Positions 1 to 15,993 of a stretch of 64,000 nt of DNA are shown here, in pieces. Source of the stretch: Candidatus Borrarchaeum weybense. Lineage in GTDB: Archaea; Asgardarchaeota; Sifarchaeia; Borrarchaeales; Borrarchaeaceae. The translations under genes and the position numbers were made by a program. The notes under the pieces are model-generated. The model was not told where the DNA came from, made no database searches, and was given only the letters and a program-made list of their open reading frames with translations. The stretch lies in contig JAHQJS010000004.1 of the NCBI GenBank assembly GCA_019057385.1, forward strand, positions 741,062-805,061, read 5' to 3'. Position 1 is the first letter of the stretch. Each line of letters begins with the position of its first letter.

Positions 1-8
1 CTTACGGT

Positions 9-1586
9 ATGGCTGCTTGGAGGATCATTGAGGGCGATATGCCTTACCGTGATTTTTATCATTCACACCCTCCACTTTCTCCCTATTTACTTGCTTTTGT
101 ATTCCTGATATTTGGTGTTGGCGTCATCCAAGCGAGGTTATTCTTAGTTTTTTTCACAACCTTTACAAGTTTCGTGATCTTTTTAGCCGGAAAAAGGATT
201 GATTATAAAACAGGGTTGTTAGGGAGTTTAGTCTATGCAGTTACTCCGTGGTCCGTTGTGTACGGCATGAGGGCGGTAAATGATCATATCGCCATAACTT
301 TCTGTATCATAGGATACTATTTTCTAACACCAGTCTTTGTACAGAATAAAGACAAAATAATGGACGCCGCGGCTGAAAGAAACAGTTTACTTTTAGCAGG
401 TCTTTTTGTAAGCATTGGAGTACTGATTAAAATTATAGTGGCACCAATACTGTTTGCTTTTATCGTTATTTTAATCATTGAAGGACGATATAATGGTGTT
501 GGAATTAGCAATCAGACAAAAAATGTTGGTTTCTTAATTCTCGGGTTCATTATTCCTCTATTAGTTGTGTGTTCGCCCTTTTACTTACTAATCGGTGACG
601 AGTTTACAAAGCAAGTCCTGGGGCAGCATTTTGCGAAACCTCCATCCCCAGGAGAGCGTTGGATTTATCCTGTGGAATATTTAATCTTAGGAAATGCCTA
701 TTTCTTCGTTTTCTTTGCTCTAAGCGTTTTTTTCGCGATACGAAGACCCTATGGAAGGGGGTTAATCATTTGCATTCTTGTTATGATTTTTTCTATATTC
801 TTCTTCGTTCCACGAGCACATGTAAATTATTACCACGCCCTCATCCTGTGGATGTCCATGGTCTGTGGGTTCTTTCCCCTGCCAAATTTGAAATCATTAA
901 AGTCAAAAACAGAATTGGTAATCCTGAATTTCATTATTGTTCTAAATTTATTATTCTACAAGATTTATCGTTATTTTAATCTTTACATCCCAAGAGCAAC
1001 CTATTTTAGTCATATTTCGGCACAAATCGCTCTTGTAGCAACCTCAATCGCGTTAATTGCCTTCATCGTTATGTTAATCAAAGAAGGGCACTATTCCGAT
1101 GGTAGAATTAACGATCAAGTAAAAAATGCACTTTCCTTTCCTTACCAGATTTGGAAACGCCTGAGAAACATTTTTGACCAAGATGGAATAAAAGCAATCA
1201 TTGCGGTACTCTTTATTGTTCTAATTGCGACAACCTATATTTCATACTTTCCTCGTTCTGAAAGTGAGAAGAAAACTGTTGAATGGATTAAAGCAAACAC
1301 TTCCCCCGATGATTATGTTCTGGTTGATAATTTGAAAATCAATTTTTGGTCATTAAGGAGAAGCCCGTTTGCCGAAGTTTCAATAGATCGAACACTCCTT
1401 GGCGAACTTACTGGAGAAATGTTCATTGAAGCATGTTATGCATTTGATGTTAGAGTTGTTGTTGTCACCGGAAGATTGTTTGGAGAATATGAGACGTATG
1501 ATGTTTTTCTAGAGTTTCTGGAGAATAATTATGTGCCAATAACAGAAGGTTATACAATCTACGTACGCATTTATTCTCTACAATAA
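9..1586 (+). CDS. GT-C fold membrane glycosyltransferase (ArnT/PMT-like); frame is open to the window edge, so probably 5'-partial
   Basis: Many TM segments; N-terminal PYRDFYHSHPPL motif typical of ArnT-like GT-C proteins; C-terminal soluble domain. Confidence 0.75.
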   Translation: MAAWRIIEGDMPYRDFYHSHPPLSPYLLAFVFLIFGVGVIQARLFLVFFTTFTSFVIFLAGKRIDYKTGLLGSLVYAVTPWSVVYGMRAVNDHIAITFCIIGYYFLTPVFVQNKDKIMDAAAERNSLLLAGLFVSIGVLIKIIVAPILFAFIVILIIEGRYNGVGISNQTKNVGFLILGFIIPLLVVCSPFYLLIGDEFTKQVLGQHFAKPPSPGERWIYPVEYLILGNAYFFVFFALSVFFAIRRPYGRGLIICILVMIFSIFFFVPRAHVNYYHALILWMSMVCGFFPLPNLKSLKSKTELVILNFIIVLNLLFYKIYRYFNLYIPRATYFSHISAQIALVATSIALIAFIVMLIKEGHYSDGRINDQVKNALSFPYQIWKRLRNIFDQDGIKAIIAVLFIVLIATTYISYFPRSESEKKTVEWIKANTSPDDYVLVDNLKINFWSLRRSPFAEVSIDRTLLGELTGEMFIEACYAFDVRVVVVTGRLFGEYETYDVFLEFLENNYVPITEGYTIYVRIYSLQ

Positions 1587-1684
1587 AAATAGAGGAAATT
1601 GCAATATACCAGAACTATGAGTTTTTTGGAAAAAGTTTTTGATGTTCGAGATCGATCTTTTATGTAATTTATTACGGTGATACA

Positions 1685-1930
1685 ATGACTGACAGACCAA
1701 ACTGTGAAAATTGTGCCATTCCTATGCGCTTTGTTCTCACTGATATTCATGGAGAAAAACTTCGCGGCTGGTACTGTTCCGCCTGTGGTCTATTCAAGCC
1801 TATCGAATCAGATAAAGAGGTAGAACTCAAATTCGACAAAGAAACTATATTGAAGGCAACAACCACGACAGCACTATTTATCGATGATGAAATGGTCGTT
1901 GAAGACTTGACGGAACAACTAGATCGTTAA
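1685..1930 (+). CDS. Small Zn-ribbon protein
   Basis: CENC...CSAC pairs; GGTGA SD-like motif just upstream. Confidence 0.65.
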   Translation: MTDRPNCENCAIPMRFVLTDIHGEKLRGWYCSACGLFKPIESDKEVELKFDKETILKATTTTALFIDDEMVVEDLTEQLDR

Positions 1931-1957
1931 TGTTGTTAAACTTCAATTTTTTTGTTT

Positions 1958-1997
1958 TACCTGAAAATAGGTTTTTCCAAAGTGTTTCAGGTAGAAT
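1958..1997. repeat. 40-bp palindromic direct repeat, copy 1
   Basis: TACCTGAAAATAGGTTTTTCCAAAGTGTTTCAGGTAGAAT, identical to 6461-6500; arms TACCTGAAA/TTTCAGGTA. Confidence 0.95.
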
Positions 1998-2010
1998 CTT
2001 ATCATCGTAC

Positions 2011-2021
2011 TCAGTATTTCA
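2011..2021. repeat. Candidate 11-bp target-site duplication, left copy
   Basis: TCAGTATTTCA, identical to 13160-13170. Confidence 0.5.
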
Positions 2022-2753
2022 TCCCCATTTTTTGTAATTTTCTCAATTACGTCTTCACAAAACAAATTATCGTAGTTTAAATGGCGTAAGCCAATGTGGT
2101 AGAGATCATAATACCCGACTTTTAAGAATGCCAGACATCTCTTCAACGTTATGAAAACTCTCTTCATCGAAAAAGATCATAAACACTGTTGGATCAACTC
2201 TTTTAGTCCAATAACCTTCAACCTCGACTCATCGAAAAGGCGAGTCCATAACCGCCTTATTCATAGAATTCATAAAACTCTTAAGAGAAACTTTGAATTG
2301 ACTTTCCTTACAAAATTAGAATCCTGCTATCCATTCACGAAATTAACGAGCAAAACGCTTCCTAAAAGGAGTTATTGTGATTTAAGACAAGGGTTACACC
2401 TTAAAAGTGATTAGACTATATTTCATATAATCGGAGAAACATGCCATTCTGAGTAGTTACGAATAAATTGAACAGAGTTAAAAAAATAGGAATGTTACTA
2501 ATAATTGGGAATTGATTTGAAACAAACAAAAATGACAGTTATGATTCTTATCGTTGAATATTACTAAGAAAACATACTCCAGAGAGAGTTTCTGTCTTAT
2601 TATAAACGAACTATACTATAGAATCAAGTAAAGAGTCAAAGAAAGATTGTATGTACTGACTTTGCTTGAGTTTTTATCGTTTAAAGATTTATGTAGTTGA
2701 GAATCCATGTAGATGTATGAGCAGTATTTTTGCTGTTAAGGACAGTGTGATAG

Positions 2754-3746
2754 ATGGGAAATGAGTTTGTGACGGTTAAAGGACGAAGATATGCTGTTGA
2801 AGGAAATGGCGAACTCGACCTTGGTATCAACAAAAATCACTCCGCCAAAGAACATTATGATCATTATGAGACTCCTTTTGAAGATATTGCCGAGATAGAG
2901 GGCTTGGAGACCCTCACTCACCTTAAAGAATTAATTCTTGGTCCCAATTATATAACAGAGATCAAGGGCTTGGAAAATCTCAGCAATCTCCAAGTACTCT
3001 CTCTCCATGATAATGAAATCAAGGAGATCAAGGGCTTGGAAAACCTTACTAGCCTTCAAAAGTTAGTCCTCAGTTCTAACAGGATCAAAGAAATTAAAGG
3101 CCTGGAAACTCTTACTGATCTCCGTTACCTAACTCTCAATTCTAATAACATAGAAGTGATCCAGGGATTGGAACACCTCTCTAATCTTCAAAAACTAGAT
3201 CTGCGTTATAATCCAGTAGGTGCCTCAGAAAAGATCTTACAGTGGACAAAGGGTGCACAGGAAGTAGTTAAGTACTGCCAAGAAAAAAAGAAACGCACGC
3301 ATCTTGTTACGTTCAGAGAAGATATTTACGGTGTTTATGATACACTAGACTTAAGCAATAAAGAAATTAAGAATGTCTCTGAGATTGAAGGTTTAGAGCA
3401 TGTTACCCATTTCCGAATACTAAACCTAAGGAATAATTATCTAAAAAAGATCAAAGGACTGGAGTTTCTCTCTGATCTGAAAAAACTAGATCTTAGTAAG
3501 AATCTTATACAAGAGATTACAGGCTTAGAAACTCTCACCAATCTCGAATATCTTGATCTTAGTTTGAACCAGATAAAAGAAATCAAGGGATTGGAAACTC
3601 TTACCAATCTCAAAGAACTATTACTCAATCATAATCCGATAAGAGATGAAGAGAAACATTTAGTAGAGATGAGTGCACAAGAGATTGTGAAATACTGCCA
3701 AGAAAAAGCGAGAGTGACCAAAAAAAAGGCGACTGAAGGCAAATAA
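2754..3746 (+). CDS. Leucine-rich repeat protein (SDS22-like), two capped LRR modules
   Basis: Repeated LxxLxLxxNxIxEIKGLExL 22-aa units; C-cap AQEVVKYCQEK occurs twice. Confidence 0.92.
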   Translation: MGNEFVTVKGRRYAVEGNGELDLGINKNHSAKEHYDHYETPFEDIAEIEGLETLTHLKELILGPNYITEIKGLENLSNLQVLSLHDNEIKEIKGLENLTSLQKLVLSSNRIKEIKGLETLTDLRYLTLNSNNIEVIQGLEHLSNLQKLDLRYNPVGASEKILQWTKGAQEVVKYCQEKKKRTHLVTFREDIYGVYDTLDLSNKEIKNVSEIEGLEHVTHFRILNLRNNYLKKIKGLEFLSDLKKLDLSKNLIQEITGLETLTNLEYLDLSLNQIKEIKGLETLTNLKELLLNHNPIRDEEKHLVEMSAQEIVKYCQEKARVTKKKATEGK

Positions 3747-3758
3747 GGGAGGGAGCGC

Positions 3759-5099
3759 ATGGTAGAGGAGTTTGTGACAGTTAAAGGTAAAAAATACTAT
3801 GTTATTGGAGGCAATCTGGACCTACACGATAAAAAGATTTCTGATATCGCTGAAATCAAAGGCTTAAAGAATCTTACCCATCTTAGAGATTTAGATCTTA
3901 GCAATAATCAGATTGGTGAGATCAAAGGACTGGAACACCTTACTGAACTTAAAATACTAGACCTTAGAGAAAATCGGATAATAGAGATCAAAGGGCTGGA
4001 GCATCTTACCAACCTAGAAGTATTGTTGATTGATAAGAATCCAATAAAAAAAGAAGAATGGAATTTTGTATATGGCGAACATGAATGGGATGGTAAGTTA
4101 ATATCTGGAGCGCCAGTTTGGAGACTCGTGGAATATAGTCGATTAAAATCGCACAATCTTTTTGTAACAATTAGGAAAAAGAAATATTATGTAGATGTTG
4201 ATGAAGGCGAGCTTAACCTAAATGGCAAAGAAATCACTAGTATCGATGAAATCACAGGGCTGGAAAAGCTCAAAGACCTTGAAATACTCCACTTAGACTG
4301 GAATCAGATAACAGAGATCAAGGGGCTAGAGAACCTAGTAAGTCTAAAAGAACTCAACCTTCACTGCAATGAAATTGAAGAAATCAAAGGCTTAAGCAGA
4401 CTTTCTAAGCTTGAACGATTATCCCTTTACAATAATCAAATCAAAGAGATTAAAGGCTTAGAGAATCTCAACAAACTTCGAATATTGCGGCTTAAAGGCA
4501 ATCCGATAGAAGAAATTAAAGGCTTAGAACATCTTACGAATCTTAAAGTATTGCAACTTAATACTAATCTACTAAGTGGTTATGAGAAAAATTTGCTTAG
4601 GTATAACGCTCAAATGGTTGTAAAGTACTGTCAACACCAAAAGGAAGATACATTGCTTCATTTACCTTTTGTAACAGTCAGAGGGGAAAATTATTATGTT
4701 GACGATGATAAGCTCAGCCTTTGGGGTATAAAACTAACCAATATCGCTGAAATTAAAGGATTGGAGAATTTCATCAACCTCAAAAGTCTAAAACTTAGTG
4801 CAAATAGGATAACAACTATTAGTAAACTAGACCAGCTTAAAGATCTTCAAAAACTGGAGCTTAATGAGAATAAAATCAGAGAGATCAACGGTCTAGAAAA
4901 TCTCACTAATCTTAAAGAACTAGATCTTAGTGGAAATCAAATTGAAGAAATTAAAGGACTAGAGAACCTTATAAATTTAGAAAAACTAGACTTATTTGGT
5001 AATCCAATAAGAGAGTATGAGACACATTTGATAGACAGGAGTGCACAGGAAGTCGTGAAATACTGCCAAGAAAAGGCGAGCAAAACACACAGTGAATGA
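3759..5099 (+). CDS. Leucine-rich repeat protein (SDS22-like), three capped LRR modules
   Basis: Same LRR consensus; N-cap FVT(V/I)x(G/K)xxYYV three times; GGGAGG SD upstream. Confidence 0.92.
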   Translation: MVEEFVTVKGKKYYVIGGNLDLHDKKISDIAEIKGLKNLTHLRDLDLSNNQIGEIKGLEHLTELKILDLRENRIIEIKGLEHLTNLEVLLIDKNPIKKEEWNFVYGEHEWDGKLISGAPVWRLVEYSRLKSHNLFVTIRKKKYYVDVDEGELNLNGKEITSIDEITGLEKLKDLEILHLDWNQITEIKGLENLVSLKELNLHCNEIEEIKGLSRLSKLERLSLYNNQIKEIKGLENLNKLRILRLKGNPIEEIKGLEHLTNLKVLQLNTNLLSGYEKNLLRYNAQMVVKYCQHQKEDTLLHLPFVTVRGENYYVDDDKLSLWGIKLTNIAEIKGLENFINLKSLKLSANRITTISKLDQLKDLQKLELNENKIREINGLENLTNLKELDLSGNQIEEIKGLENLINLEKLDLFGNPIREYETHLIDRSAQEVVKYCQEKASKTHSE

Positions 5100-5229
5100 C
5101 GTTCAAAACGGAAAAATAGAAAGACACCTATTTTTTAGATACTGTATCTGTCTGTGACATCTTCCAATCCATAACACTTACGTCAGTTATGTTTGAGTTC
5201 TATTTTTGTGTTTCTTCTTTCTTAACTAA

Positions 5230-5640
5230 TTATCTTAGTTCTGGCTTCATAACAAATCCATGGATTTTAAAATCGATGTCAAAAGTAAAGACTTCATTTA
5301 TACTCCGCCTCTCCATCATTGCGAAACTGAGGCTATCGGTCAGATCTATTTTCTGATCTTGATATCGTTTAAAATATTCTAACGCTTTACTCCAATCTTC
5401 TTTAGTCTCCCATTCAAGCTCTACGATTTTACTAGCTAGAATCTTATCAAGTTCGTATATCGCTAACTGTTTCTCAACTCTTTTAGTAAGTCCGTCTATA
5501 AACTCGATCAGGCAGTGCGTTCCAATTATGAATCGTAGTCCTCTCTTTACAGCGTGTCTAAGGTATTCGACAGCCGTAGCGTGATTTTTATCCTTTTTGT
5601 CACCAAGAGCAATCAATGCACTTGTATCGAGGTATTGCAT
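5230..5640 (-). CDS. vapC: PIN-domain toxin (VapC-like)
   Basis: YLDTSALIAL, E, DLTDSLSFAMM and VFTFDIDF acidic PIN motifs. Confidence 0.9.
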   Translation of the reverse strand: MQYLDTSALIALGDKKDKNHATAVEYLRHAVKRGLRFIIGTHCLIEFIDGLTKRVEKQLAIYELDKILASKIVELEWETKEDWSKALEYFKRYQDQKIDLTDSLSFAMMERRSINEVFTFDIDFKIHGFVMKPELR

Positions 5641-5655
5641 TCTTTTCCCCCAGCG

Positions 5656-5886
5656 TTATGTCCTCCATTCATCCCTTTCGCTCCAAGTTCCTTCTTCAGT
5701 TTCAAAACTGCCAATTATGTCAAACAGGGGATCATGCTCAAGTTCATTCACATATTTTTTAACATATTCCTCTATTGCGTCTCTTATAATGCGTTCGATG
5801 CTTGTTTTCTTGCGCAATGAGATGTTCTTAAGCAAATTATGTAAATATTCATCTATTTCAGTTTGAATGGATTTCACGTTGCTCAT
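5656..5886 (-). CDS. Ribbon-helix-helix antitoxin (VapB-like)
   Basis: Short gene directly upstream of the PIN toxin; SIERIIRDAIEEY RHH-like helix; DPLFDIIG tail. Confidence 0.75.
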   Translation of the reverse strand: MSNVKSIQTEIDEYLHNLLKNISLRKKTSIERIIRDAIEEYVKKYVNELEHDPLFDIIGSFETEEGTWSERDEWRT

Positions 5887-5984
5887 ACATTTTCACCAAG
5901 CCGTATATTGCATCTAGTTATTAAAATACTTGTTGACTGCTTTGAATATTATTCATAACCGTGCTTAAAAACTCTGAGTTTTCA

Positions 5985-6000
5985 GTGAACTACTCCATCC
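5985..6000 (-). mobile_element. Short remnant of an IS200/IS605-type right end
   Basis: GTGAACTACTCCA is identical to the first 13 nt of the element at 42931. Confidence 0.3.
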
Positions 6001-6460
6001 TTAGAGTTAAAAGTTATTCACCCCTCTGATATGATAATAAACCTTTCTCTAGTCTCGCAGTATAAGTTCTACGCGTATTCGCTACAAATTATTATCACGT
6101 TCTAAAATGCCGTTTCTCCGTGACGTTTTTCTGTGATATTGGAAAATCGACCTTCATAAGTCTAATATTTTAATAGAACAAAACTAGAACTATATCGCAT
6201 CCATCTCTTTCTCTTTAATATCAAAACATCATCAAGACTTGCATTAAATGAAGAAGAAGAGCGCTAATCAGAACGATTCGATAATTAATCAGATACAAAA
6301 TCAAGGATCTGCCCCGTATATCTATATATCTAGCGGGAGAATCTATTTCAAAAATGGCAGTTATTCAATTGATACTTGTTATTTGGAAACTAATAGTTTT
6401 AAAGTAAGGTATATGTCTAAAACAAAAACGTCTAAACAATTTCAAAGATGCCAATTATTC

Positions 6461-6500
6461 TACCTGAAAATAGGTTTTTCCAAAGTGTTTCAGGTAGAAT
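6461..6500. repeat. 40-bp palindromic direct repeat, copy 2
   Basis: Identical to 1958-1997; here the inverted arms are a perfect 13 bp (ATTCTACCTGAAA 6457-6469 / TTTCAGGTAGAAT 6488-6500). Confidence 0.95.
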
Positions 6501-6772
6501 AGACAGTTTTATACCTTCCATTTTTTCAAGAACAGTTGAAGAATGCTTAGGTATTGCTACAAATACATTTGGAATCTACTTGGTTCAAAATCAAACCTTT
6601 TTAGAGATTTCATTCTTCTATGATAACTTCATACTTCTAAACTAGAAGAACAGTTTGAATTTTAGAGACGCTCAAGATACATAACCTGCAATTTTCGGTA
6701 TAATTTTAATATACTCGCTTTATAAATTAATTCTTACCCTTTCATATATGGGTACTGACGCTGCCACGTATT

Positions 6773-9700
6773 GTGGATATATATTCAGTGATTGAACGAT
6801 TGATACAAGCTAATTATCATAAGCTCTGGTTTTTCCAAGATAAGTCGGTGCGTGCTTTCAGGGAAGGAAAAGATATATTGATAAAAGCTCCAACTGGTGC
6901 TGGAAAAACGCTTATTCCACTTATCTGTGCTACACTTGTTCTTGGAGAAAAATTGCGTTGTGTGTTTCTCGTACCAACAAGGCGATTAATTGACCAGACC
7001 TACGACCAGCTTGAAGACTGGTTTAAAAGTTTACCACGATATCAGAAAAAATATCGTATCGTCAAGGTAACAGGAGACGAGAGACCTTCTCACCGGGAAA
7101 TCAAAAGGGCTAACATCATCGTAACCACATATGAATCTTTTAATGGACTACTGTCGAAACAGTATGAGTACGCTCTCCTGAAGAAAGTAGGACTCGTAAT
7201 AGTCGATGAAATGCACTACATCAGCGATGCGGAACGAGGAGGACGGCTTGAGGATGCCATTGTCAAGGCAAAACTATGGTTGCGTCGTCGTCCCCAGATG
7301 ATCTATCTGGCGGCTACCTTAGGAAATGCAGAAGAAATCGGAGAGTGGTTAAAAGCCGAAGTTATCCAAACGACAAAACGCCACTCAAAAATAATTGTTG
7401 GAACCCCAATCAAAGTCTATGATGAGTATGAACGGTTAGAAACCATTTTTAGACTGATTAAAGAGACCTATGAGTTAGAGGTAGGGGCAAAGGAGACAGA
7501 TAAAAGATGTGTATTAATCTTTTGTAGAAGGCGACAGGACACCGAACTCAGAGCTTGGGAACTGACAAAAAAATGTGAGGACATGTGTTACAAGCTAACC
7601 GTTTCCTATAGCCATGCTGGGCTAAAAGCTATAGAACGACAAAGGCGGATGAAGTCATTTCGAAAGGGAGAGATTGATGTCCTTTTCACTACAACTGAAT
7701 ATAGAGAAGGAATAGACGCCCCAGTTCTGCGGATTATTATAGCGGATACAGAGGTTTTTGATTCACTGGAATTAGAACAGATGATAGGGAGGGCTGCACG
7801 ACCTCGTTTTTTTGAGATTGGATATGCAAATCTGATCATTCAAGGGAATGTAAACGTTATTTTGAGTAAAAACGAGATATCAATAGAGAATGGAGCAATT
7901 CAATTTAAGGAAAAACCTTTGAAAAGTCAGGCAAAACGTTATTTGAGCGGGATCATCCTCAATAGAGTGGCACGAGGGGCGGTTTCAACAGGGCAACTCA
8001 TCAGGTATCTTAAAGAATTCTATTTCTATTATGAGGAAAAAAGGCGAATAAGCAATTGGAATAGACTTTTACACACCGCGATTTCTAAACAAGAAGTATT
8101 CATACTCACAAAAGAGAATGATAAAAAGCTTTTTTCCTTAATCAATGGCAATGAACGTTACAGACGAGAAGACAAAGCAAACTTTCAATTATTTGTAAAG
8201 GGTTTCTTGAGCCACGTATTTGAAGCTGTAAAGGTCCGAAAGAAACGTACAAAGCGGAAGAAAAAATATAAACTTGAAAGCGAAGTAGTTTGCGATCTTC
8301 TAAAAGAATATTCTCATATTGAACATAAACGCTCTGAGAAAAGACTTAAAGAGCAGGTTAAAATACATCTACTTTATCTTATTCATGCGGGTTTTCTGGA
8401 GAGGAAATATAACAAAGTTGACGCAATAAAGAGTGGAAAATACAGGGCAACGGATGAGGGACGGTGGGCAAGTCAGTTTTTATTACGAGTCAATGATGCT
8501 CTTAAAATCCATCAATTCTTTCAAACCCGGAGATTCTATTCAGATGATGATACATTCGAGAAATTGGCTAACCTTATAGGTGAACGTGTATGTGAGCATG
8601 ATAATGAGCGATACGGGGTGAAGCAATATAGTGGGTTCATAAAGTTTTTGGTACTGGGATTTGATTTAGATGAGGCCGCGAAAAAAACAGGGATTAGACT
8701 GGGGGATGCTGAAGGATGTAGAAAGACTGCCACATGGATGGCAGAAGCGATGCAGGCTTACGTGGAAATGAATATCCCGTTCATTATACCTGTGGCGAAG
8801 AGTATTGTTGAATCACTTACTTTGCGAGAAAGGGATGATCCCCGTAAAAAGGTGCGACGATATGTAAAAGAAAAAGCGCCACCATATCCAGGTATTCAGG
8901 AAGCGATTAATGCTGTTCTTGAACAGGGAAGGATTGTAACGTATGATGACCTCCATGAAGTAATTACTGACCGTTATGGCGATTCTATTGCCCGTATAAC
9001 GACTATTAGGAACGTCCTTGATTTAGCGGTGCATGGGAAACTTGTAAAATTCTCACGAGGTAAAGGCGTAGGGCGCCCTTTAAGTCAAGTTTGCAGTACT
9101 AAAGCACAAATTCCTGAGTATTTTCACAAGACCTGTGGTTCATGTGTTTTTCGTATTACTATAACGGATGAGAGCGAAAAGGAACACGAAAATCAACGGT
9201 ACATCTGTGAATTACGCAGAGACTATAATAAACACACGAAAACCAATACTTTAAGTTCCTATGTCACACAAAAATATGGAGCATGTAGATATCACAACTC
9301 TTCGCGAAAGAGGAAACTTCGTTCAATTAAGAGTTTGAAAGCAATCAATGCACTTGAGGCGATCTGTCATATTTGTCAAGCAGCAGTAGTTCAGATACCA
9401 CAAACTTATAATCGTTACACTCGATGTCCGAATTGTGATTCAGAATATTACTACCGCTGGGATGGAAGGATCAATGTTAAACCTGGTGTAGGAGATCTTC
9501 TTCAAGACGCTCTCAAAGATATTCTAGGAAAGGTTGTTAAGCCTACGAAAATTTGGCAAAAAAGAGAAGGCGATATACAGCGACACTATATGAAACTAAT
9601 AATCAAGAAAGGTGAAAATGCTTATGTTAACCAAAATAAACTCTTTTATATCCCAAAGGAAGGAAAAGCACGCTCATATCTATTAGATGCTATTCATTTT

Positions 9701-10765
9701 ATTGGGGTTTGTGATGGCGTAAAACTCAAACAACAAGTCTATAATAAACTTGGTGACAGAATTTTTCCTGAGAGACATTTAAAGAAAGCGCCACGAGTTC
9801 CCTCTGATCAGTACAATGACGTTTTTAATTTCCAGATAACTGACACACTTAAAGAACGTGCAGAAAGACTAAGAAGAACAGTCGAGGGTGCACATTTTGC
9901 CAGGATAATTGTAACGAGTAAAAAACTAAGTAATGTTCTTCTTACACTACAAGCTGAAAAGGATGAATTGTTAAATTCAAGAGACGTCGAAAGGTTATTC
10001 TTCAAACAAATGAATGTTGTCGCCCACACTGTTATGCATTGGACTGGGAATAGAGATAATCTTCTCAGTTTTGAAGGAATTGGTGAACGTTACGCCTGGG
10101 AAGGTTTGAAACTTATTGTGAAAGATACTGCTTTGAAATGTGGTAGTCGGACTCAGGAGCGGCATATCTTTTCTGTTCCCTTTATCGGAATGGTGAAGGC
10201 ACGTTCGCCCTTTAGCACAGGACTTAATGCTATATACCGTCGCGCGCTTCAATTCTGTCGACACGCCCTCTATAATGTGGGTTTTTCTTGGCATCCCGGG
10301 GAACTTGTCTTGCATTTTCAAAGAGGGAAAGGACAACGAATTTCCATAGGTGCTATCCTCGACTTTCGCGAACTGTTTCTTCCACTCTTTAGATATGTGT
10401 ATGCTAAAGCATGTAAAGAGAGAGAAATTAATGAAAACGATTTCATACGATCAAACACCCATCGGGGAGAAGAAATATATTCGCTTACCGAGAAGGGAGA
10501 GGAGAAGATTAGCAAGTTATTTGAAAGAATAATGAATGAACGGGTTTATTATCTGAACACATTTATGCCATTACATACCGCTATAAAGCAATGCGCTAAG
10601 TCTCTCTGCAACTTTCTATTGCATAAATCGCCTTTTTCTCCTTTTATCTGTGCTTTGGATGAAGAACAATTTAAAGAGATTTCTAAACGATTTCAAAATA
10701 TAGAACGATTTTGTGCTTCATTAGGAAAAGGACCTCCGATTCCTAATGTGTTTGCTATGGCATAA
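6773..10765 (+). CDS. Ski2/Hel308-like SF2 helicase fused to wHTH, Zn fingers and a C-terminal diverged Cas1-like integrase domain
   Basis: Helicase motifs APTGAGKT, VPTRRL, TTYE, DEMH, LAAT, HAGL, QMIGRAARP. Cys clusters CGSC..C..C and CHIC..CPNC. C-terminal LLSFEGIGERYAW / PFSTGLNAIY / VLH..ISIGAILDFRELF match the Cas1 E..H..DxxE catalytic pattern. Confidence 0.8.
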   Translation: MDIYSVIERLIQANYHKLWFFQDKSVRAFREGKDILIKAPTGAGKTLIPLICATLVLGEKLRCVFLVPTRRLIDQTYDQLEDWFKSLPRYQKKYRIVKVTGDERPSHREIKRANIIVTTYESFNGLLSKQYEYALLKKVGLVIVDEMHYISDAERGGRLEDAIVKAKLWLRRRPQMIYLAATLGNAEEIGEWLKAEVIQTTKRHSKIIVGTPIKVYDEYERLETIFRLIKETYELEVGAKETDKRCVLIFCRRRQDTELRAWELTKKCEDMCYKLTVSYSHAGLKAIERQRRMKSFRKGEIDVLFTTTEYREGIDAPVLRIIIADTEVFDSLELEQMIGRAARPRFFEIGYANLIIQGNVNVILSKNEISIENGAIQFKEKPLKSQAKRYLSGIILNRVARGAVSTGQLIRYLKEFYFYYEEKRRISNWNRLLHTAISKQEVFILTKENDKKLFSLINGNERYRREDKANFQLFVKGFLSHVFEAVKVRKKRTKRKKKYKLESEVVCDLLKEYSHIEHKRSEKRLKEQVKIHLLYLIHAGFLERKYNKVDAIKSGKYRATDEGRWASQFLLRVNDALKIHQFFQTRRFYSDDDTFEKLANLIGERVCEHDNERYGVKQYSGFIKFLVLGFDLDEAAKKTGIRLGDAEGCRKTATWMAEAMQAYVEMNIPFIIPVAKSIVESLTLRERDDPRKKVRRYVKEKAPPYPGIQEAINAVLEQGRIVTYDDLHEVITDRYGDSIARITTIRNVLDLAVHGKLVKFSRGKGVGRPLSQVCSTKAQIPEYFHKTCGSCVFRITITDESEKEHENQRYICELRRDYNKHTKTNTLSSYVTQKYGACRYHNSSRKRKLRSIKSLKAINALEAICHICQAAVVQIPQTYNRYTRCPNCDSEYYYRWDGRINVKPGVGDLLQDALKDILGKVVKPTKIWQKREGDIQRHYMKLIIKKGENAYVNQNKLFYIPKEGKARSYLLDAIHFIGVCDGVKLKQQVYNKLGDRIFPERHLKKAPRVPSDQYNDVFNFQITDTLKERAERLRRTVEGAHFARIIVTSKKLSNVLLTLQAEKDELLNSRDVERLFFKQMNVVAHTVMHWTGNRDNLLSFEGIGERYAWEGLKLIVKDTALKCGSRTQERHIFSVPFIGMVKARSPFSTGLNAIYRRALQFCRHALYNVGFSWHPGELVLHFQRGKGQRISIGAILDFRELFLPLFRYVYAKACKEREINENDFIRSNTHRGEEIYSLTEKGEEKISKLFERIMNERVYYLNTFMPLHTAIKQCAKSLCNFLLHKSPFSPFICALDEEQFKEISKRFQNIERFCASLGKGPPIPNVFAMA

Positions 10766-11026
10766 ATCAAATATCATTTTCTGTTTTTTCCTTTGACTTG
10801 GATTAGTGTTGACCATTTATGCAACCCTTTTTGTTATGGCAGAAATTTAAAGTTTTCATGAATTTTTAGCCATTTTTCTTAAAAATTTATTGATTCAAAA
10901 CAACTTTTTACTAAAGTATAAAGGATTTTTCTTATGTTTCCAAAAAGATAGTTGAAAACGTCTTTAAAATGCTTTATTTTCAAAAAGAAGTGTATAAAAT
11001 ACTTCATTATACTAAAAAAAGGTAGA

Positions 11027-11048
11027 GAAAGCGATAGGTTTATATATC
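11027..11048 (+). promoter_or_regulatory. Putative archaeal BRE/TATA promoter of the cas7-like gene
   Basis: Purine-rich stretch, then TTTATATA at 11039-11046, about 45 nt before the ATG; GAGGT SD at 11080. Confidence 0.55.
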
Positions 11049-11091
11049 TGGTTGCAAAAGGTATATTTGAAAAATCAACGAGGTTAGTCAA

Positions 11092-11877
11092 ATGAAAACC
11101 ACAAAAAAACAAATTGTAGTTCGTGCCTATACTCCGATTGCCAAGCCCCTGAATGCCTCCATCCAGAAAAACTCTACTATGTTGCTTCTCGGTGAAATTC
11201 CGTATACAAATGGAGGAAAGACCTTCAATACTAAGGTGTATTACATCAAGGGTCTGCGTGGCATGTTACGACATGCTGCAATGAAACTTGCGTATGATTG
11301 TGGGATTGAAGTTTGCCATACTAGCGAAAAAACCGAACTCAAAGATGGTACAAAACTGATGCCTGTGGGATTTCATACATTAGGGAGTTGTGATCCTCCT
11401 TGTATTCTTCAGCGTATCTTTGGCAGTTTTCGCAAAGAGTCTCGAATTTCAGTTTCGGCGGATCCTATTACTTCTATCTCTCATAAAGACTATACAACCG
11501 ATGTAGCGGTGCAAAAAGTCCATATTGCCAGCGAAAATCGAATAGCCATGAGCTTTGAGCGGATTCCGATACAGGATTTTCGTGAAAGTTATTTCAGCGG
11601 TTATTTTACCTTCTCCATTGATGTGACTCAATTAACCAAAGAGGAAATTAAGTTTCTTATTGAATCATTGCTCTATATCGAGACACTTGGCGGCGGTAAA
11701 AATGCAGGCTATGGGCAGGTCAAATTATTAGACTTTGATCTCCAAAATATTGAAGTCGAGAAAAAAATAGAACGAGAAGATGGCGTCTATAAGTTCTCTG
11801 AGGACATAAAAGCTGAACCAGTTGTACTTGACGGTATTGAGGATTGGAGGGAAACTATAGTCTCAGTAGACACATGA
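11092..11877 (+). CDS. cas7: Cas7-group RAMP protein
   Basis: KGLRGMLRH helix, Cys insert with CILQRIFGS, thumb region ENRI, glycine-rich loop LGGGKNAGYGQV. Confidence 0.85.
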   Translation: MKTTKKQIVVRAYTPIAKPLNASIQKNSTMLLLGEIPYTNGGKTFNTKVYYIKGLRGMLRHAAMKLAYDCGIEVCHTSEKTELKDGTKLMPVGFHTLGSCDPPCILQRIFGSFRKESRISVSADPITSISHKDYTTDVAVQKVHIASENRIAMSFERIPIQDFRESYFSGYFTFSIDVTQLTKEEIKFLIESLLYIETLGGGKNAGYGQVKLLDFDLQNIEVEKKIEREDGVYKFSEDIKAEPVVLDGIEDWRETIVSVDT

Positions 11878-11943
11878 GGGGATTAAATGATTCATGAAAA
11901 GGCTTTATTTCATTTCTTTTCTTTTTTCTCTTCTCTTCTCATC

Positions 11944-12075
11944 CATGACGGTCTGCTACTTGCATATCGCGGGTGGCACGTTCTGGTACATGAGACCGAA
12001 CCATCTGAGAGGCCCCACGCCTCCAGTATTGATGGGGACGGATGACAGGCAACGGGACGATAAAAGTGATATCCA
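11944..12075 (+). ncRNA. Putative structured ncRNA, copy 1 (132 nt)
   Basis: About 75% identical by hand alignment to 13034-13159, with compensatory changes in stems; GC-rich in AT-rich context; G-U pairs favour the + strand. Confidence 0.65.
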
Positions 12076-12113
12076 ATATACGAATAAAAGGTAAAGAAAC
12101 CGATATGGTTAGA

Positions 12114-12142
12114 TATCCCGTTATATTCATTCTAACGGGATA
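12114..12142. repeat. Perfect 10-bp inverted repeat (hairpin or operator) upstream of the Cas5-HD gene
   Basis: TATCCCGTTA-N9-TAACGGGATA. Confidence 0.8.
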
Positions 12143-12164
12143 AACACTATAATGAGGGTTAGAA

Positions 12165-12974
12165 ATGGTAAAAAACTGGGTTAAATTGACGGGCATAACG
12201 AAAACACCTGTGATCTCCAAGCGAAAACGATTTGGAATTAAGGGCATAGGAGTGATTACTATTCATGGTCGTCCTAGAGCCTTCGGCAAACTGACAAAAG
12301 GAGAAAGACGGGCACCCATGACTTTTAGAGCATGGTATGGACATGTTGAGTTTATTGTTCCAGAACATAAACTTGAGACCGCATTCTCCATTGATCGCCT
12401 CGGACGCTACACCCATGAAGGCATGGGACTCATACAATGGAACGAAGTGAAAAAACTCCACAATAAGCCTCTCTACTTCTCGAGAAATATCATCATCCGA
12501 AAAATGCTCCCTTCCAACCTTACCGAAATACAACAAAAACTCATGATCGCTATGCTTCTCCATGACTTCGTTAATACCGAAAGGCACTCAAGTAAAATCT
12601 ATACTGAAATCAATATTCTTGATGAAGAAATCTACAAATTAGTAAAAAATCACCACAACTATGATACCGACGAAAAACAACTTCCTCTTCTTTCTATCCT
12701 TCAATATTATGATAGATTATCTTCCTCTATTTCTCGAAAATTCAAGTGGTCTGCTTACTCGCGGTATCGCGTCACAGAATTAGAAAAAATTGATTTTCAA
12801 GTTCTAAAAAGGGAAATTGAATCACGACAACATTCTATTTATCCCCTTTATACCTCTATCCGTAAATCACAAATTCTTGGCAAAATAAATGAAGCACTCG
12901 CTTTTGGCTTTTCTTCTCTGAAGAACCATCTACTCTTAATGGTGAACCTCTATCTTAATGATTTACCGAGTTGA
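12165..12974 (+). CDS. Compact Cas5-like RAMP fused to an HD nuclease domain
   Basis: N-terminal KLTGITKTP strand and G-rich loop LGRYTHEGMG; C-terminal MLLHD, KNHH and YYDRLSS motifs typical of CRISPR-associated HD domains. Confidence 0.7.
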   Translation: MVKNWVKLTGITKTPVISKRKRFGIKGIGVITIHGRPRAFGKLTKGERRAPMTFRAWYGHVEFIVPEHKLETAFSIDRLGRYTHEGMGLIQWNEVKKLHNKPLYFSRNIIIRKMLPSNLTEIQQKLMIAMLLHDFVNTERHSSKIYTEINILDEEIYKLVKNHHNYDTDEKQLPLLSILQYYDRLSSSISRKFKWSAYSRYRVTELEKIDFQVLKREIESRQHSIYPLYTSIRKSQILGKINEALAFGFSSLKNHLLLMVNLYLNDLPS

Positions 12975-13033
12975 GTTCTTATGTTCCAAATTATGGTGTT
13001 ATTGTTTCTCTTCATTGGTAAATGCATCAACTA

Positions 13034-13159
13034 CAAGACGGAATGCTCTTCGCTCTACGCCCAGAGCACGTTCTTGTGCATGAGACTGCACCTGAGAGGT
13101 CCCACGCCTTCTTCGACGGGAATGTATGACAGGCACAGGGACGATAAAAGTGATACCCA
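13034..13159 (+). ncRNA. Putative structured ncRNA, copy 2 (126 nt), abutting the putative right junction
   Basis: Homologous to 11944-12075; shared blocks GCACGTTCT, CATGAGAC, CTGAGAGG, CCCACGCCT, ATGACAGGCA, GGGACGATAAAAGTGATA. Confidence 0.65.
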
Positions 13160-13170
13160 TCAGTATTTCA
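13160..13170. repeat. Candidate 11-bp target-site duplication, right copy (includes the stop codon of the HerA-like gene)
   Basis: TCAGTATTTCA, identical to 2011-2021. Confidence 0.5.
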
Positions 13171-15064
13171 GAAATGGACGACCCAGAAGAATGTATTCTA
13201 TGAAATTAGCTCGTTTAGCGCTCTTTATAATTTTCTCAAATTTCTTACGAACCCGATTTTCATCAACGTTTAATTCAGACACATCTATTTCGTCCATAAC
13301 GTTTTTAAGAAGTTTTTCGAAATCATAGACAAGTTTCTCGCCCTCCAAGTGGGCTAAACCCGTTTTAAGGGCGGTATTCACCTCTATGTAATACCACTCA
13401 CGAGCAACTGGGTACTTTAGATGCCCCTTTTTTACTAAATCTCTAAGGAATTCCAAGCCAAATTCAGTGTGTCCTAACTCTTCTAAACGTGCTGCTAATG
13501 CGGCGATGACATCTTCATTTGACGAGGGTGTCTTAACTCCAACGATACGTGGACGCTTTAATGCAGTTTCTAATTCTTCCTCACTCATTTTCGGTGTTGG
13601 TAGTTCATCCAAAATGTCCTCTTCTTTGATTATCTCTTTGTCCTTAATTTTATCTTTTGGTTTCATACCCACTGGTGTTTCAATTTCGGTTTTTGGTTCA
13701 ATTGTTTCGGTTGGGGGTTGAACTTCTTCAGGTTTCACTTCGGGGACTTTGGTGACTTCGGGAGTCGACTCTTCGATAATTCCTGCTGAGATAAGTGCTT
13801 CTTTCAGTTTTCTTACATCATTTTCTGTTAATGTTTCATGTTCTGTAAGTAACCAGCGCGTTTTAAAAAATTGAATATCCTTTTTCAAGTCTGGGGACAC
13901 AAGTACAAAATTACCTGCTTCGAGCCGTGGTAATTTATTGATGATTTTTGCTGCTCGGGTTTCACCGGCACCTGCAGTCACGATGTGTTCAATGGCTTCA
14001 CGAGATTGACGGGCGGTAATTCTTCCTATCGCAAAAGTGTTCATCTGCTCAAAAGCTTTGTAGTCCACGTCCTTAGGGCTTTGGGTCGCAATAATGCAGA
14101 TAACTCCATATTTGCGTGCCTGACGAAATATAAGTTTCAACCCTTCCTTTGGACCAGGTTTCACTGTCCCTGAAGGACAAAAAGGAGCAATCTCGTCAAT
14201 GAAGAAAATCAATCGTGGTTTTTTGGAGGAGCCTTGGTTTATCATCCAATCATACAAGCGGTTCACTAATATCGAAATGAAAAAATGCCTTTCTTCATCT
14301 GTTGTGAGGGTTTTGAGAAAGAAAACATTGATAGGTGTACGCCCTTTTTCTTTCTTTATTAACTTCGTGATATTTAGTCTCTCTCCTAATTCAAAAAGCA
14401 ATTCTGACGTCCCAATTGTTAAACTTCTAATGGATTGACTTAGTCGTTCTCTTTCAGCATCTTTTAGATACTTTCCATAGTCGACTGAATTTAATGGATC
14501 TTCTACAAGAAGATCTGCTAAATGTTTCAAATCTTTAATTTCTTTATCTTTTTGCCAGTAGTTTTTCATAAGTTCGTAAATCACCGCAAATGCTTTTGAT
14601 TCATAGCTGCTCGGCAGCCCAGTTACCTTTATTAGAACCCTTACCAGTGTACGGCTGGAATTGTCGAGTAACCTGATAGCATCTTCATGTTCTGCCTTCA
14701 CATCAGGAAATACTATGGGATCTATACAGATTGGAAGACCCTTTGTTGAAGCAGGAGTAAATATTTTTACATAAACTTTGTCCTTATATTCTCTAAGCAT
14801 TTTTAATGGAAGTCCATGTTCTTCTATGACTTTTGGATCGGCAAGCTTAATCAACGAAGCAATATCACCTTGAGGGTCCAAGGCAATTATTGGGATTCCT
14901 TCTTTAGCTGCTTCTTCAATAATAATTTTTGCTAAAACGGTCTTACCAGACCCTGTCGATCCAAAAGCTGCCATATGTCTAACTAAAATTTTGGCAGGTA
15001 TTTCCAAATGCTTTTCTGTAGGATTTCCATCCTTATCTACTTCATAACCTATAAATAGTGACAT
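13160..15064 (-). CDS. HerA/FtsK-superfamily ATPase (DUF87-like) with acidic/Pro-rich linker and C-terminal domain
   Basis: HMAAFGSTGSGKT, ALDPQGD, FFIDEI, ARKYGV..ATQSP motifs. Confidence 0.85.
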   Translation of the reverse strand: MSLFIGYEVDKDGNPTEKHLEIPAKILVRHMAAFGSTGSGKTVLAKIIIEEAAKEGIPIIALDPQGDIASLIKLADPKVIEEHGLPLKMLREYKDKVYVKIFTPASTKGLPICIDPIVFPDVKAEHEDAIRLLDNSSRTLVRVLIKVTGLPSSYESKAFAVIYELMKNYWQKDKEIKDLKHLADLLVEDPLNSVDYGKYLKDAERERLSQSIRSLTIGTSELLFELGERLNITKLIKKEKGRTPINVFFLKTLTTDEERHFFISILVNRLYDWMINQGSSKKPRLIFFIDEIAPFCPSGTVKPGPKEGLKLIFRQARKYGVICIIATQSPKDVDYKAFEQMNTFAIGRITARQSREAIEHIVTAGAGETRAAKIINKLPRLEAGNFVLVSPDLKKDIQFFKTRWLLTEHETLTENDVRKLKEALISAGIIEESTPEVTKVPEVKPEEVQPPTETIEPKTEIETPVGMKPKDKIKDKEIIKEEDILDELPTPKMSEEELETALKRPRIVGVKTPSSNEDVIAALAARLEELGHTEFGLEFLRDLVKKGHLKYPVAREWYYIEVNTALKTGLAHLEGEKLVYDFEKLLKNVMDEIDVSELNVDENRVRKKFEKIIKSAKRANFIEYILLGRPFLKY

Positions 15065-15369
15065 TTTTTACCACATTAGAGAGCTAAACGAATACCGATT
15101 GAATCATGAAAAATCACTCACGATCTCAAATAAAGCTTTTCACAAAGTTTTAAAAATCTCTTGTAAAATCGACGAAAACTCAATAATCAATGCAAACACT
15201 AATTTATTGTAACTTTACAGTTTAAGGACAAATCTAAACCCTATTAGCGTCTATTCTATGTGTGAGTGGACAAAGAACAGCAAGTCGGCAATGATAGATT
15301 TAACTATAGTAGTAAAAGTAAAATAGAAAGAAAAAAAGAATTCGGGAGCACCCCTTGCAGGGTGCACGT

Positions 15370-15993
15370 CTAACTCGGTACTTCTTCATATCGACCGCGA
15401 AGTACAACGCCTAGGAGTATGAGTAGCCCAGCTGAAATGGCTCCTAATACCCACGCCGACGTATTAAAGCCGGCAGCTATGTACAAACTGTTGAAGCCAG
15501 CGAGTATCAAGCTTAAGAACACACCTAAAATCAACGAGAACAAGATAAATCTAGCAGTTGTTTCTTTAGAAACTTCTCGTCCCTTGCCTTGTAAAACATC
15601 TACGATGAACCCGAGTTGGCTTAATCCCCACAGAAATATAAATGCCACAAAAATCACTGTCGCATAGTTGAACATCGCTTGTGTCATTTCTGCTTGACTA
15701 GTTCCAGGCCATACAGGCAACATTCCTAGACTGTAGAAGTATCCCGCACCTAAGATTGCTGCAATTACGAACAAAAAGGCAAAAATGTTTCCAAATAGCA
15801 AATCGTCAGGGTGCACGTAGCCTACTCTTCCTTTCTCCTTGAAGAAAGTATTGATGATTGCTACGAACAACACTATCGCAAGAAATACAAATGTGACATA
15901 GTATACAGTTAAGCTCTGAAGCCAAAGACTAAAGACTAATACAGCGCCTCCTATCCCAGACGCCATAGCACCGAAGAAAATCAATCTAACCAC
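15370..15993 (-). CDS. Multi-pass membrane protein, unknown function
   Basis: About six hydrophobic segments; GGAGGT SD before GTG. Confidence 0.7.
   Translation of the reverse strand: MVRLIFFGAMASGIGGAVLVFSLWLQSLTVYYVTFVFLAIVLFVAIINTFFKEKGRVGYVHPDDLLFGNIFAFLFVIAAILGAGYFYSLGMLPVWPGTSQAEMTQAMFNYATVIFVAFIFLWGLSQLGFIVDVLQGKGREVSKETTARFILFSLILGVFLSLILAGFNSLYIAAGFNTSAWVLGAISAGLLILLGVVLRGRYEEVPS

Follow-up and report, generated by a model that had tools for sequence, protein, structure and literature searches.

Organization of the locus

The window, i.e., the whole 64,000-nucleotide stretch of DNA analysed here, carries near its left end two copies of a palindromic repeat, a variable gene segment between them, and a cassette of the ARAMP type. 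The features of this region are as follows.

9-1586: PMT_2 glycosyltransferase, conserved left flank
1685..1930, plus strand: 81-aa ORF, conserved left flank, with its stop 24 bp before copy 1 of the palindrome
1954..1997, plus strand: palindrome copy 1, 44 bp, left arm GTTTTACCTGAAA
1998..6456: variable 4.46-kb segment between the copies, Pfam-annotated, with the next four entries
2151-2414: small ORF
2754-3746 and 3759-5099: two LRR proteins
5230-5640, minus strand: PIN toxin
5656-5886, minus strand: RHH antitoxin
6457..6500, plus strand: palindrome copy 2, 44 bp, perfect 13-bp arms ATTCTACCTGAAA / TTTCAGGTAGAAT and 18-bp core ATAGGTTTTTCCAAAGTG
6501..6715: unique non-coding spacer from copy 2 to the ARAMP promoter, not common to paralogous cassettes or other palindrome loci
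6716..6733, plus strand: conserved box resembling an archaeal promoter, CGCTTTATAAATTAATTC, some 45-55 bp before the helicase-Cas1 start
6773..10765, plus strand: Hel308/Ski2-type helicase fused to a predicted Cas1-fold domain, 1330 aa, first ARAMP gene
11092..13160, plus strand: rest of the ARAMP cassette, with the next four entries
11092-11877, plus strand: Cas7-like RAMP
about 11944-12075, plus strand: ARAMP RNA copy 1
12165-12974, plus strand: RAMP-HD
about 13016-13160, plus strand: ARAMP RNA copy 2

ARAMP (Asgard RAMP) systems are array-less CRISPR derivatives described by Makarova et al. (2020; as summarised in PMC8730458 and PMC12669027), and the published summaries call their mechanism enigmatic. 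The cassette in the window, with its helicase-Cas1, Cas7-like RAMP, and RAMP-HD genes, fits this description. A CTTTATAAAT-type box lies upstream of all six paralogous cassettes and forms the left limit of their homology.

The helicase part of the 1330-aa protein was recognised by Pfam and NCBIfam; no Cas1 match emerged by sequence alone. An AlphaFold2 model of residues 880-1330, of moderate confidence (pLDDT 68), matched Cas1/casposase structures, with 6opm_B as the best hit (E 6.8e-10). Foldseek returned 70 matches for these residues at E ≤ 0.001, and all 50 listed were Cas1/casposase entries. Residues E222/E226, H302, and D318/E321 of the putative Cas1-fold domain are invariant in 8 paralogs. 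The previous designation of this gene as a Cas1 fusion is thus upheld by the predicted fold of the C-terminus.

Structure of the palindromic unit

The earlier note, made from the sequence alone, had reported an exact 40-nt identity between window positions 1958-1997 and 6461-6500. This identity was reproduced, with no matches in 100 shuffles, and the similarity reaches 46 nt at 96% (1952-1997 vs 6455-6500). The full repeat unit is 44 bp long and consists of perfect inverted 13-mers flanking the 18-bp asymmetric, T-rich core. The left (outer) arm of copy 1 is degenerate at two positions, while its core and right arm are those of copy 2; the two copies are spaced by 4503 bp. The distances given previously were also correct: 13 bp separate the end of copy 1 from the candidate TSD (the 11-mer TCAGTATTTCA at 2011-2021), and 272 bp (about 270 bp in the note) separate the end of copy 2 from the GTG start (6773) of the helicase-Cas1 gene. 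Of the weak similarity said to continue into both flanks, the downstream part needs an 11-nt offset plus a gap and is not regarded as significant. The flanks of both window copies occur only once in the genome and recur at none of the retrieved loci. Across the family, the element is 43-47 bp long, and its conserved core, T-rich and asymmetric, measures about 18 bp; the arm centres are 31 bp apart, approximately three helical turns.

No sign of an assembly artefact was detected. All three genomic contexts of the exact repeat were covered at an even depth of about 30-35x, as judged from contigs of four public runs of one study. These contigs showed neither excision nor an alternative joint, although they break at the repeat and so could not reveal one. 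The same two-copy layout is present in the independently assembled genome of a sister species (G004).

Distribution of the repeat family

A third exact copy of the 44-mer is located on another contig of the same genome (G000:C7:418119-418162), and an identical 44-mer occurs in another species (G001:C176). Since the same 44-mer is shared with another species, the identity of the two window copies is no evidence of their recent duplication. In total, the genome holds 7-8 family members, six of them unlinked: seven were found at ≤4 arm mismatches (none in reversed-arm controls), and one looser copy is located on contig C2. The four congeneric genomes (G001-G004) contain 1-6 copies each at ≤3 mismatches, again with no hits in controls. 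The palindrome was also carried by 26 marine-sediment metagenome contigs, was absent from the 36 other genomes of the phylum searched, and was not found in viral contigs. It is a genus-restricted family with about 8 copies per genome. This copy number is far under that of classical REP families, a point against the explanation preferred below.

The first reading of the 40-mer was partly supported by these data. The suggestion of a small dispersed repeat proved right, given the presence of the family in this genome, in all four congeners, and in the metagenome contigs. Many unlinked genomic copies had been named as a finding that would speak against the two more special readings, and six unlinked copies exist. 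One of them, a homing-spacer-like record of the target carried by the element, is unsupported: the palindrome, taken with 10-nt flanks, has no word of ≥8 nt in common with the two ARAMP RNAs, whichever strand is compared; it also does not duplicate a flank and occurs in identical form in the other contexts mentioned above. The other, a repeat duplicated by Cas1 so as to enclose a giant spacer, is considered together with the helicase-Cas1 below.

Genomic context and possible regulatory roles

The copies are intergenic and occur with any orientation of the adjacent genes; the eight copies in this genome include three between convergent, three between tandem, and two between divergent genes. The genes neighbouring these copies are unrelated to one another and have no common function, and no gene families except PMT_2, LRR, and CAAX recur beside palindrome copies. 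The palindromes often form pairs or triplets of direct orientation, spaced by 0.5-4.5 kb, which bracket one to a few genes. Direct loop orientation was observed in 9 of 10 independent adjacent pairs. The inter-copy genes run in both orientations, and some of them, such as a CAAX protease in G002 and G004, are kept across species. Neither an integrase nor a Y1 transposase was found beside any copy.

The palindrome could in principle act as RNA, folding at the 3' end of the upstream transcript into a stable hairpin, which would terminate that transcript or stabilise it. The predicted hairpin is strong (-18.6 kcal/mol, z -4.6), and several copies begin 3-26 bp past a stop codon or sit between convergent genes. 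The pattern of arm variation argues otherwise. Among 39 distinct variants, 32 arm changes are pair-breaking, 10 are wobble, and only one is compensatory; because the arm changes break pairing without compensation, conservation acts on the DNA sequence rather than on an RNA fold. Archaeal termination depends on oligo-T rather than on hairpins, and in none of the three exact copies is the stem followed by a T-run on one strand or the other; a terminator scan made no call there. Furthermore, loop orientation is not linked to gene orientation, divergent gene starts flank two of the eight copies, eight copies are too few for a general termination signal, and an Rfam search revealed no matching family. 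A function as RNA is quite unlikely.

An operator for a transcription factor controlling the neighbouring genes, including the ARAMP operon, would agree with the palindromic arms, the spacing of their centres by about three helical turns, and the location of copy 2 and the C7 copy in divergent promoter regions. However, the three copies between convergent 3' ends have no promoter to control, and the neighbouring genes share no function. Between copy 2 and the ARAMP TATA box downstream of it lie 215 bp, and the palindrome is missing from the remaining five cassettes of this genome. We regard this possibility as very improbable indeed.

Synteny breaks at the repeat borders

Comparison with G004 revealed an orthologous copy 1 (L019/L029), which follows the same 81-aa ORF (71% amino acid and 77% nucleotide identity). 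The homology spans window positions 1-1997, stops at the last base of copy 1, and restarts at 13087, within ARAMP RNA copy 2, directly after the second palindrome of G004. The ARAMP cassette is thus deleted in G004 flush with copy 2, the deletion being 6.6 kb in size. The interval between the two palindromes in G004 contains genes for a GT2 glycosyltransferase and a methyltransferase as well as a truncated ORF. This DNA corresponds to positions 114209-116250 and 120019-120414 of contig C6 in the genome studied here, with 94-98% identity; the ends of the match are flush with the palindrome borders, and the C6 counterpart holds no palindromes. The congeners yielded no close copy of the 4.46-kb segment of the window, but only LRR paralogs at 65-80%.

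Similar junctions were identified at other loci. The right edge of the C7 copy adjoins the terminal ~55 nt of a gene whose full length is seen in a paralog, the left edge of the palindrome on G003:C269 adjoins a PMT_2 gene cut at residue 375, and the C6 copy of the palindrome retains synteny with G002/G004 on one side only. Five different truncation points of ARAMP cassettes join the same right edge of the palindrome. The outer borders of the repeat coincide to the base with synteny breaks and truncated genes. Ordinary homologous recombination between 44-bp identities could partly explain this coincidence with no need for a dedicated enzyme, which counts against the preferred explanation.

The palindrome might also be a passive relic, namely, a once-mobile MITE-like or duplication-spread repeat that offers nothing but 44 bp of identity for homologous recombination and has no recogniser protein. 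The 13-bp arms could serve as terminal repeats in a comparison with MITEs. The low copy number, the location of copies in flexible regions rich in multi-copy families, and the lack of recombinases near the copies are compatible with this, as is the outcome of a search of the genome, which revealed neither an autonomous partner nor a transposase with matching ends. No target-site duplication was seen next to about 20 copies whose flanks were inspected, and no clean empty site was found, the one candidate being a replacement rather than a clean insertion. A neutral relic would, however, not be expected to keep near-invariant arms over five species and 39 variants while its core drifts, nor to stay the same between two species with flanking genes of only about 75-90% identity. 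In addition, homologous exchange would place the junctions inside the repeat, whereas the truncated-gene junctions lie at its outer border. A relic of this kind is unlikely.

Possible relationship to the ARAMP helicase-Cas1

A further and decidedly improbable reading is that the palindrome is the DNA site of the ARAMP helicase-Cas1, i.e., the 'repeat' otherwise lacking from an array-less CRISPR derivative. Both outer borders would be cut as at a CRISPR repeat, which would yield gene-sized inserts with site duplication or border-anchored deletions. The Cas1/casposase fold predicted for the C-terminal domain, its conserved E, H, and D/E motifs, the distance of only 272 bp between copy 2 and this gene, and the characterization of ARAMP as enigmatic and array-less (PMC8730458, PMC12669027) are consistent with such a role. 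Seven of about 28 family members, from five genomes, are located ≤500 bp from an ARAMP RNA or remnant, against ~0.1 expected from the density of these RNAs; the ARAMP-adjacent palindromes are invariably co-oriented and keep to one side. The exact right border joined to five distinct ARAMP truncation points, the direct orientation of the arrays, the degenerate outer arm of the outermost copy in the window, and insert ends that cut through genes also agree with this reading.

The distribution of the palindrome speaks against it. No copy occurs within 9 kb of the other five helicase-Cas1 cassettes of this genome, and the stretch that the paralogs share begins at the promoter, 215 bp rightward of copy 2, so that the palindrome falls outside the cassette as set by this homology. 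Most copies (C4:28225, C6, two on C7, C2, and the CAAX arrays) are far from ARAMP parts, helicase-Cas1 is encoded on none of the 26 palindrome-bearing metagenome contigs, and truncated ARAMP remnants occur without the palindrome as well. The arrays are old and stable, since some inter-copy genes are conserved between species (the CAAX protease, G002 and G004), and the identity of the window copies is uninformative for the reason given above. The idea of a Cas1-duplicated repeat around a giant spacer, raised in the earlier note, is therefore left in a mixed position: direct arrays, junctions exactly at the outer borders, and strong enrichment at ARAMP remnants favour it, while the five cassettes without the repeat and the location of the majority of the family far from any ARAMP part do not. 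If true, the palindrome would be the long-sought DNA substrate of array-less ARAMP, and Cas1 would drive the shuffling of flexible gene blocks rather than the acquisition of short spacers. An exact repeat beside a cas-like gene need not belong to that gene.

Proposed function

The explanation we prefer, with a probability of roughly 0.6, is that the palindrome is a candidate protein-recognised, recombinogenic site of the REP or attC kind. A sequence-specific protein would bind this putative site, and the palindrome would serve as a break-and-join point, a recombination anchor at which flexible blocks (LRR, toxin-antitoxin, glycosyltransferases, and ARAMP cassettes) may be exchanged, lost, or truncated. 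The two window copies are probably old members of the family, with copy 1 orthologous in a sister species, and the 4.46-kb LRR/toxin-antitoxin block would be the present occupant of a replaceable slot. Besides the low copy number, this explanation is weakened by the absence of an integrase or Y1 transposase near any copy, by the lack of recurring neighbour families other than PMT_2, LRR, and CAAX, and by the fact that no clean empty site or target-site duplication, which would have pointed to mobility of the element itself, was found. A protein that cuts or joins DNA at these borders, if it exists, would explain the swapping of surface and defence gene blocks in these archaea and might give the ARAMP Cas1 a function. 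If there is no such protein, the palindrome is still a useful marker of flexible-genome boundaries.

Comparison with known systems

Small palindromic repeats are well known in bacteria; to our knowledge, they are poorly described in archaea, and we know of none in Asgard archaea. REP/BIME elements of proteobacteria are short, dispersed, lineage-specific intergenic palindromes, often located past stop codons and sometimes clustered, and they are known as hot spots of recombination and IS insertion. The palindrome described here is likewise short, intergenic, dispersed, lineage-specific, and sometimes clustered. It differs in its archaeal host, its ~8 copies per genome vs hundreds for REP, and its perfect 13-bp arms with a long conserved asymmetric core. 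No RAYT-type Y1 transposase accompanies it: the sole Y1_Tnp gene of the genome (C7:194221) has no related hairpin within 1.7-2.9 kb, unlike a RAYT gene, which REP copies flank.

Integron attC sites and cassette arrays reportedly occur in Archaea too (Ghaly et al., 2022). Similarly to attC, our palindromes are direct-oriented sites that bracket single genes or small sets, with exchange at the outer edge of the site, toxin-antitoxin genes among the cargo, and slot content that varies between relatives. In contrast to attC, sequence rather than structure is conserved, RYYYAAC/GTTRRRY boxes and extrahelical bases are absent from the perfect 13-bp stem, cargo genes may point either way, and genes are cut at some borders. 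No IntI-type integrase is encoded within 30 kb of any copy; the nearest of the seven PF00589 genes in the genome is 34 kb away from a palindrome.

The 44-bp length, partly palindromic nature, and direct orientation resemble those of CRISPR repeats, as do the junctions at the two outer borders, the positions of Cas1 cleavage in a CRISPR repeat, and the location of one copy beside a predicted Cas1-fold gene. However, there are ≤3 palindromes per array, 500-4460 bp apart, or 500-2500 bp if the window pair is left out, with whole genes between them, vs spacers of 20-72 bp in CRISPR arrays. Copy 2 is the only one that adjoins such a gene, most copies being far from cas-like genes, and the 37-nt repeat of the resident CRISPR array (G000:C4:145-168 kb) is unrelated. 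A fixed end joined to many distal points with serial truncations is reminiscent of adjacent (nested) deletions at IS elements and of one-ended IS91/Helitron-type mobilisation; for the palindrome, however, neither a transposase gene nor any longer element bounded by these termini was found, and target duplications were likewise not detected.

The palindrome family is unusual in combining few copies with very strongly conserved arms and in forming direct arrays that enclose whole genes. Also unusual is that differences between the genomes of sister species start and end exactly at its borders, and that it is enriched beside remnants of a CRISPR-derived cassette whose putative Cas1 integrase has no known substrate.

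The repeat unit

Read in its context, the palindrome is a 44-bp unit with perfect 13-bp inverted arms and an 18-bp core. It is present in two copies before the helicase-Cas1 gene (window 6773-10765) that heads the ARAMP cassette:

Copy 1, 1954-1997: differs from copy 2 only by two bases in the outer (left) arm
Copy 2, 6457-6500: arms ATTCTACCTGAAA and TTTCAGGTAGAAT; 18-bp non-palindromic, T-rich core ATAGGTTTTTCCAAAGTG

The identity of 1958-1997 and 6461-6500 reported in the earlier note was reproduced (0 matches in 100 shuffles), as were the distances of 13 bp from copy 1 to the 11-mer at 2011 and of 272 bp from copy 2 to the GTG at 6773. The one syntenic relative has other DNA in place of the stretch holding the left copy of the 11-bp candidate duplication (2011-2021 / 13160-13170). 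The 4.46-kb segment between the palindromes has a G+C content of 34-36%, against 36-41% in the surrounding DNA, without a sharp transition. Elsewhere in the window, at 35292-35936, two direct repeats of 294 nt share 98% identity (start-to-start 351 bp).

Family and distribution

The own genome (G000) was searched whole (8 contigs, 4.18 Mb); the window corresponds to C4:741062-805061. A third exact copy was found on contig C7 (C7:418119-418162). A search tolerating ≤4 mismatches in the arms and core lengths of 10-30 nt identified seven members, whose cores measure 17-21 nt, while the reversed-arm control gave none; an eighth, looser copy is located on C2. All four congeneric genomes (G001-G004, G004 being the sister species) possess 1-6 copies each at ≤3 mismatches (controls 0), and the palindrome was not found in 36 further genomes from the phylum. 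A single JGI metagenome scan revealed 26 palindrome contigs, which we read, from contig names and sample labels, as originating from marine or estuarine sediment. IMG/VR viral contigs contained no match. The exact copy-2 44-mer is likewise present in another species (G001:C176), and two metagenome contigs hold it between different flanks; the identity of the two window copies is therefore no evidence of recent duplication.

The earlier note had considered a homing-spacer-like record of the target, a Cas1-duplicated repeat around a giant spacer, and a relic or small dispersed repeat. The search of the genome and its relatives that it had proposed found copies beyond the locus in both, and the dispersed-repeat reading is correct: an exact copy exists elsewhere, 7-8 members reside in the own genome, and all congeners have the family. 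By the earlier note's own reasoning the two special readings fall, the palindrome being a dispersed family.

Palindromes are often paired or tripled at a spacing of 0.5-4.5 kb. Arrays were found at the following loci:

The window
G004:C54
G001:C176
G003:C269
Loci L039, L040 and L041
G002:C194 and G004:C17 (one and the same locus)

Nine of ten independent adjacent pairs have co-directional asymmetric cores (binomial P about 0.01).

Conservation of arms and core

As a single strand, the palindrome is predicted to form a strong hairpin (-18.6 kcal/mol, z -4.6). Among 39 distinct variants, per-column conservation was 80-100% in the arms (mostly ≥90%) and only about 50-80% in the core. The arm changes comprised 32 pair-breaking, 10 wobble and 1 compensatory; this pattern is that of a DNA sequence recognised by a protein rather than that of an RNA helix. 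A function as terminator, 3' stabiliser or operator is opposed by these pair-breaking changes, by the lack of any Rfam family in window 1-16000 (E ≤ 1) and of a T-run after the stem, and by mixed gene settings and orientations. Of the eight own copies, three are flanked by convergent, three by tandem and two by divergent genes; the products of these neighbours are unrelated, and genes between two palindromes have either orientation relative to the core. The promoter/terminator scan used bacterial models and is uninformative for an archaeal host.

Borders of the palindrome

In G004:C54 (L019/L029), the alignment with window 1-1997 (77%) stops at the final base of copy 1 and restarts at window 13087 (93%), directly past the second G004 palindrome. 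Between its palindromes, G004 carries genes for a GT2 glycosyltransferase and a methyltransferase and a 5'-truncated ORF, in place of the LRR, PIN and RHH genes of the window. Own C6:114209-116250 plus 120019-120414 match this DNA at 94-98% identity; both ends of the match are flush with the palindrome borders, and the C6 version is without palindromes. The matching C6 DNA is part of an 8-kb island of glycosylation genes (G000:C6:113833-121793; L065 5834-13794) that is missing at the orthologous G004 site (C98). The second G004:C54 palindrome is fused directly to position ~72 of ARAMP RNA copy 2, so that 6501-13086 is deleted relative to the window, with one deletion end exactly at the palindrome border.

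Other copies also mark discontinuities. The C7 palindrome adjoins the 3'-terminal ~55 nt of a gene whose paralog on C8 is whole; the left border of a G003:C269 palindrome adjoins a PMT_2 gene truncated at residue 375; and at the C6 palindrome synteny with G002 and G004 is kept on the ATPase side and lost on the other. Around the C7 copy (G000:C7:417418-420359), the left flank, the 5' part of an AMP-binding enzyme gene, is repeated 1.9 kb rightward at 83% identity, and these two copies enclose the palindrome and a 479-aa gene.

No target duplication was found beside palindromes and the empty-site search gave no clean case; movement by simple insertion is thus not demonstrated. No 1997/6501 joint appeared in the public contigs of four DNA runs; these end at the repeat, and such data cannot reveal excision or a joint of this kind. 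Neither Y1 transposases nor tyrosine recombinases, considered as partner enzymes, were encoded near any copy. Matches to a longer element with the same 13-bp termini were at chance level (≤1 mismatch).

Association with ARAMP cassettes

Across five genomes, 7 of about 28 palindromes have an ARAMP RNA or remnant no more than 500 bp away, versus ~0.1 expected from ARAMP RNA density; some of the seven are orthologous, leaving 4-5 independent cases. Relative to the palindrome, the ARAMP piece never changes side or orientation, and five different truncation points meet the same right palindrome border:

RNA position ~57
RNA position ~72
~58 nt before the RNA
RAMP-HD gene, final ~40 nt
RAMP-HD gene, final ~210 nt

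These look like a nested series anchored at the palindrome border. Outside the window, at G000:C4:817729-819349 (L013 3001-4621), a palindrome directly adjoins the 3' half of one ARAMP-type RNA. Another partial copy of the RNA follows 1.5 kb on, and a 382-aa ORF between them has helix-hairpin-helix / Pol-lambda-fingers matches. In G003:C79, the palindrome adjoins a single RNA, and the 1.5-kb piece is not present.

The ARAMP-palindrome link is real. Palindrome-free 5'-truncated remnants and solitary RNAs also exist (G000:C7:767900-768367; C4:562853; C4:1262895; C7:108012), and PMT_2, LRR and CAAX genes are further recurrent neighbours of palindromes, so shared residence in flexible regions may account for part of the enrichment. 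LRR genes are located 2 kb from the palindrome at C7:176708, and directly upstream of two ARAMP cassettes, that of the window (2754-5099) and its closest paralog (G000:C4:910398-914378).

The own genome contains six full ARAMP cassettes and several helicase-less or truncated ones. In all six, a CTTTATAAAT-type promoter box precedes the start by ~50 bp (window 6716-6733); this box is also the left limit of homology among the paralogs. Copy 2 lies 215 bp upstream of this box, in unique DNA. Upstream of the five other cassettes there was no comparable palindrome, only inverted repeats at chance level. Palindrome and ARAMP RNAs share no word of ≥8 nt and no complementarity. The resident CRISPR array (G000:C4:145004-168271; at least 49 copies of the 37-nt repeat TTTCAATCCTTATTACTTAAGGAATTCTTTTGCAAC) is unrelated to the palindrome.

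The helicase-Cas1 protein

Sequence searches of the 1330-aa protein identified only a Hel308/Ski2-type helicase, and no Cas1 was detected when the C-terminal 450-900 residues were compared by sequence with Pfam, NCBIfam and PDB, so a fold search was needed. An AlphaFold2 model of residues 880-1330 (eight paralogs, pLDDT 68) matched Cas1 and casposase structures (best 6opm_B, E 6.8e-10); of 70 structural matches at E ≤ 0.001, the 50 listed were without exception Cas1 or casposase. The Cas1 fusion claimed earlier is borne out by this predicted fold together with the invariant E, H and D/E positions. Among 201 phylum genomes, the Cas1-fold domain is restricted to this genus. Scanning genome contigs with the whole protein yielded one distant helicase and nothing else, and a word-based protein search gave matches solely from the own genome. 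One helicase-Cas1 paralog (G000:C4:417460-421447) is divided between neighbouring open frames, one covering residues 4-555 and the other 552-1323.

We consider it improbable that the ARAMP helicase-Cas1 uses the palindrome as its substrate; such a role would be of high interest. We favour, with a probability of roughly 60%, a protein-recognised, recombinogenic site of the same kind as REP and attC sites, marking where replaceable gene blocks begin and end.
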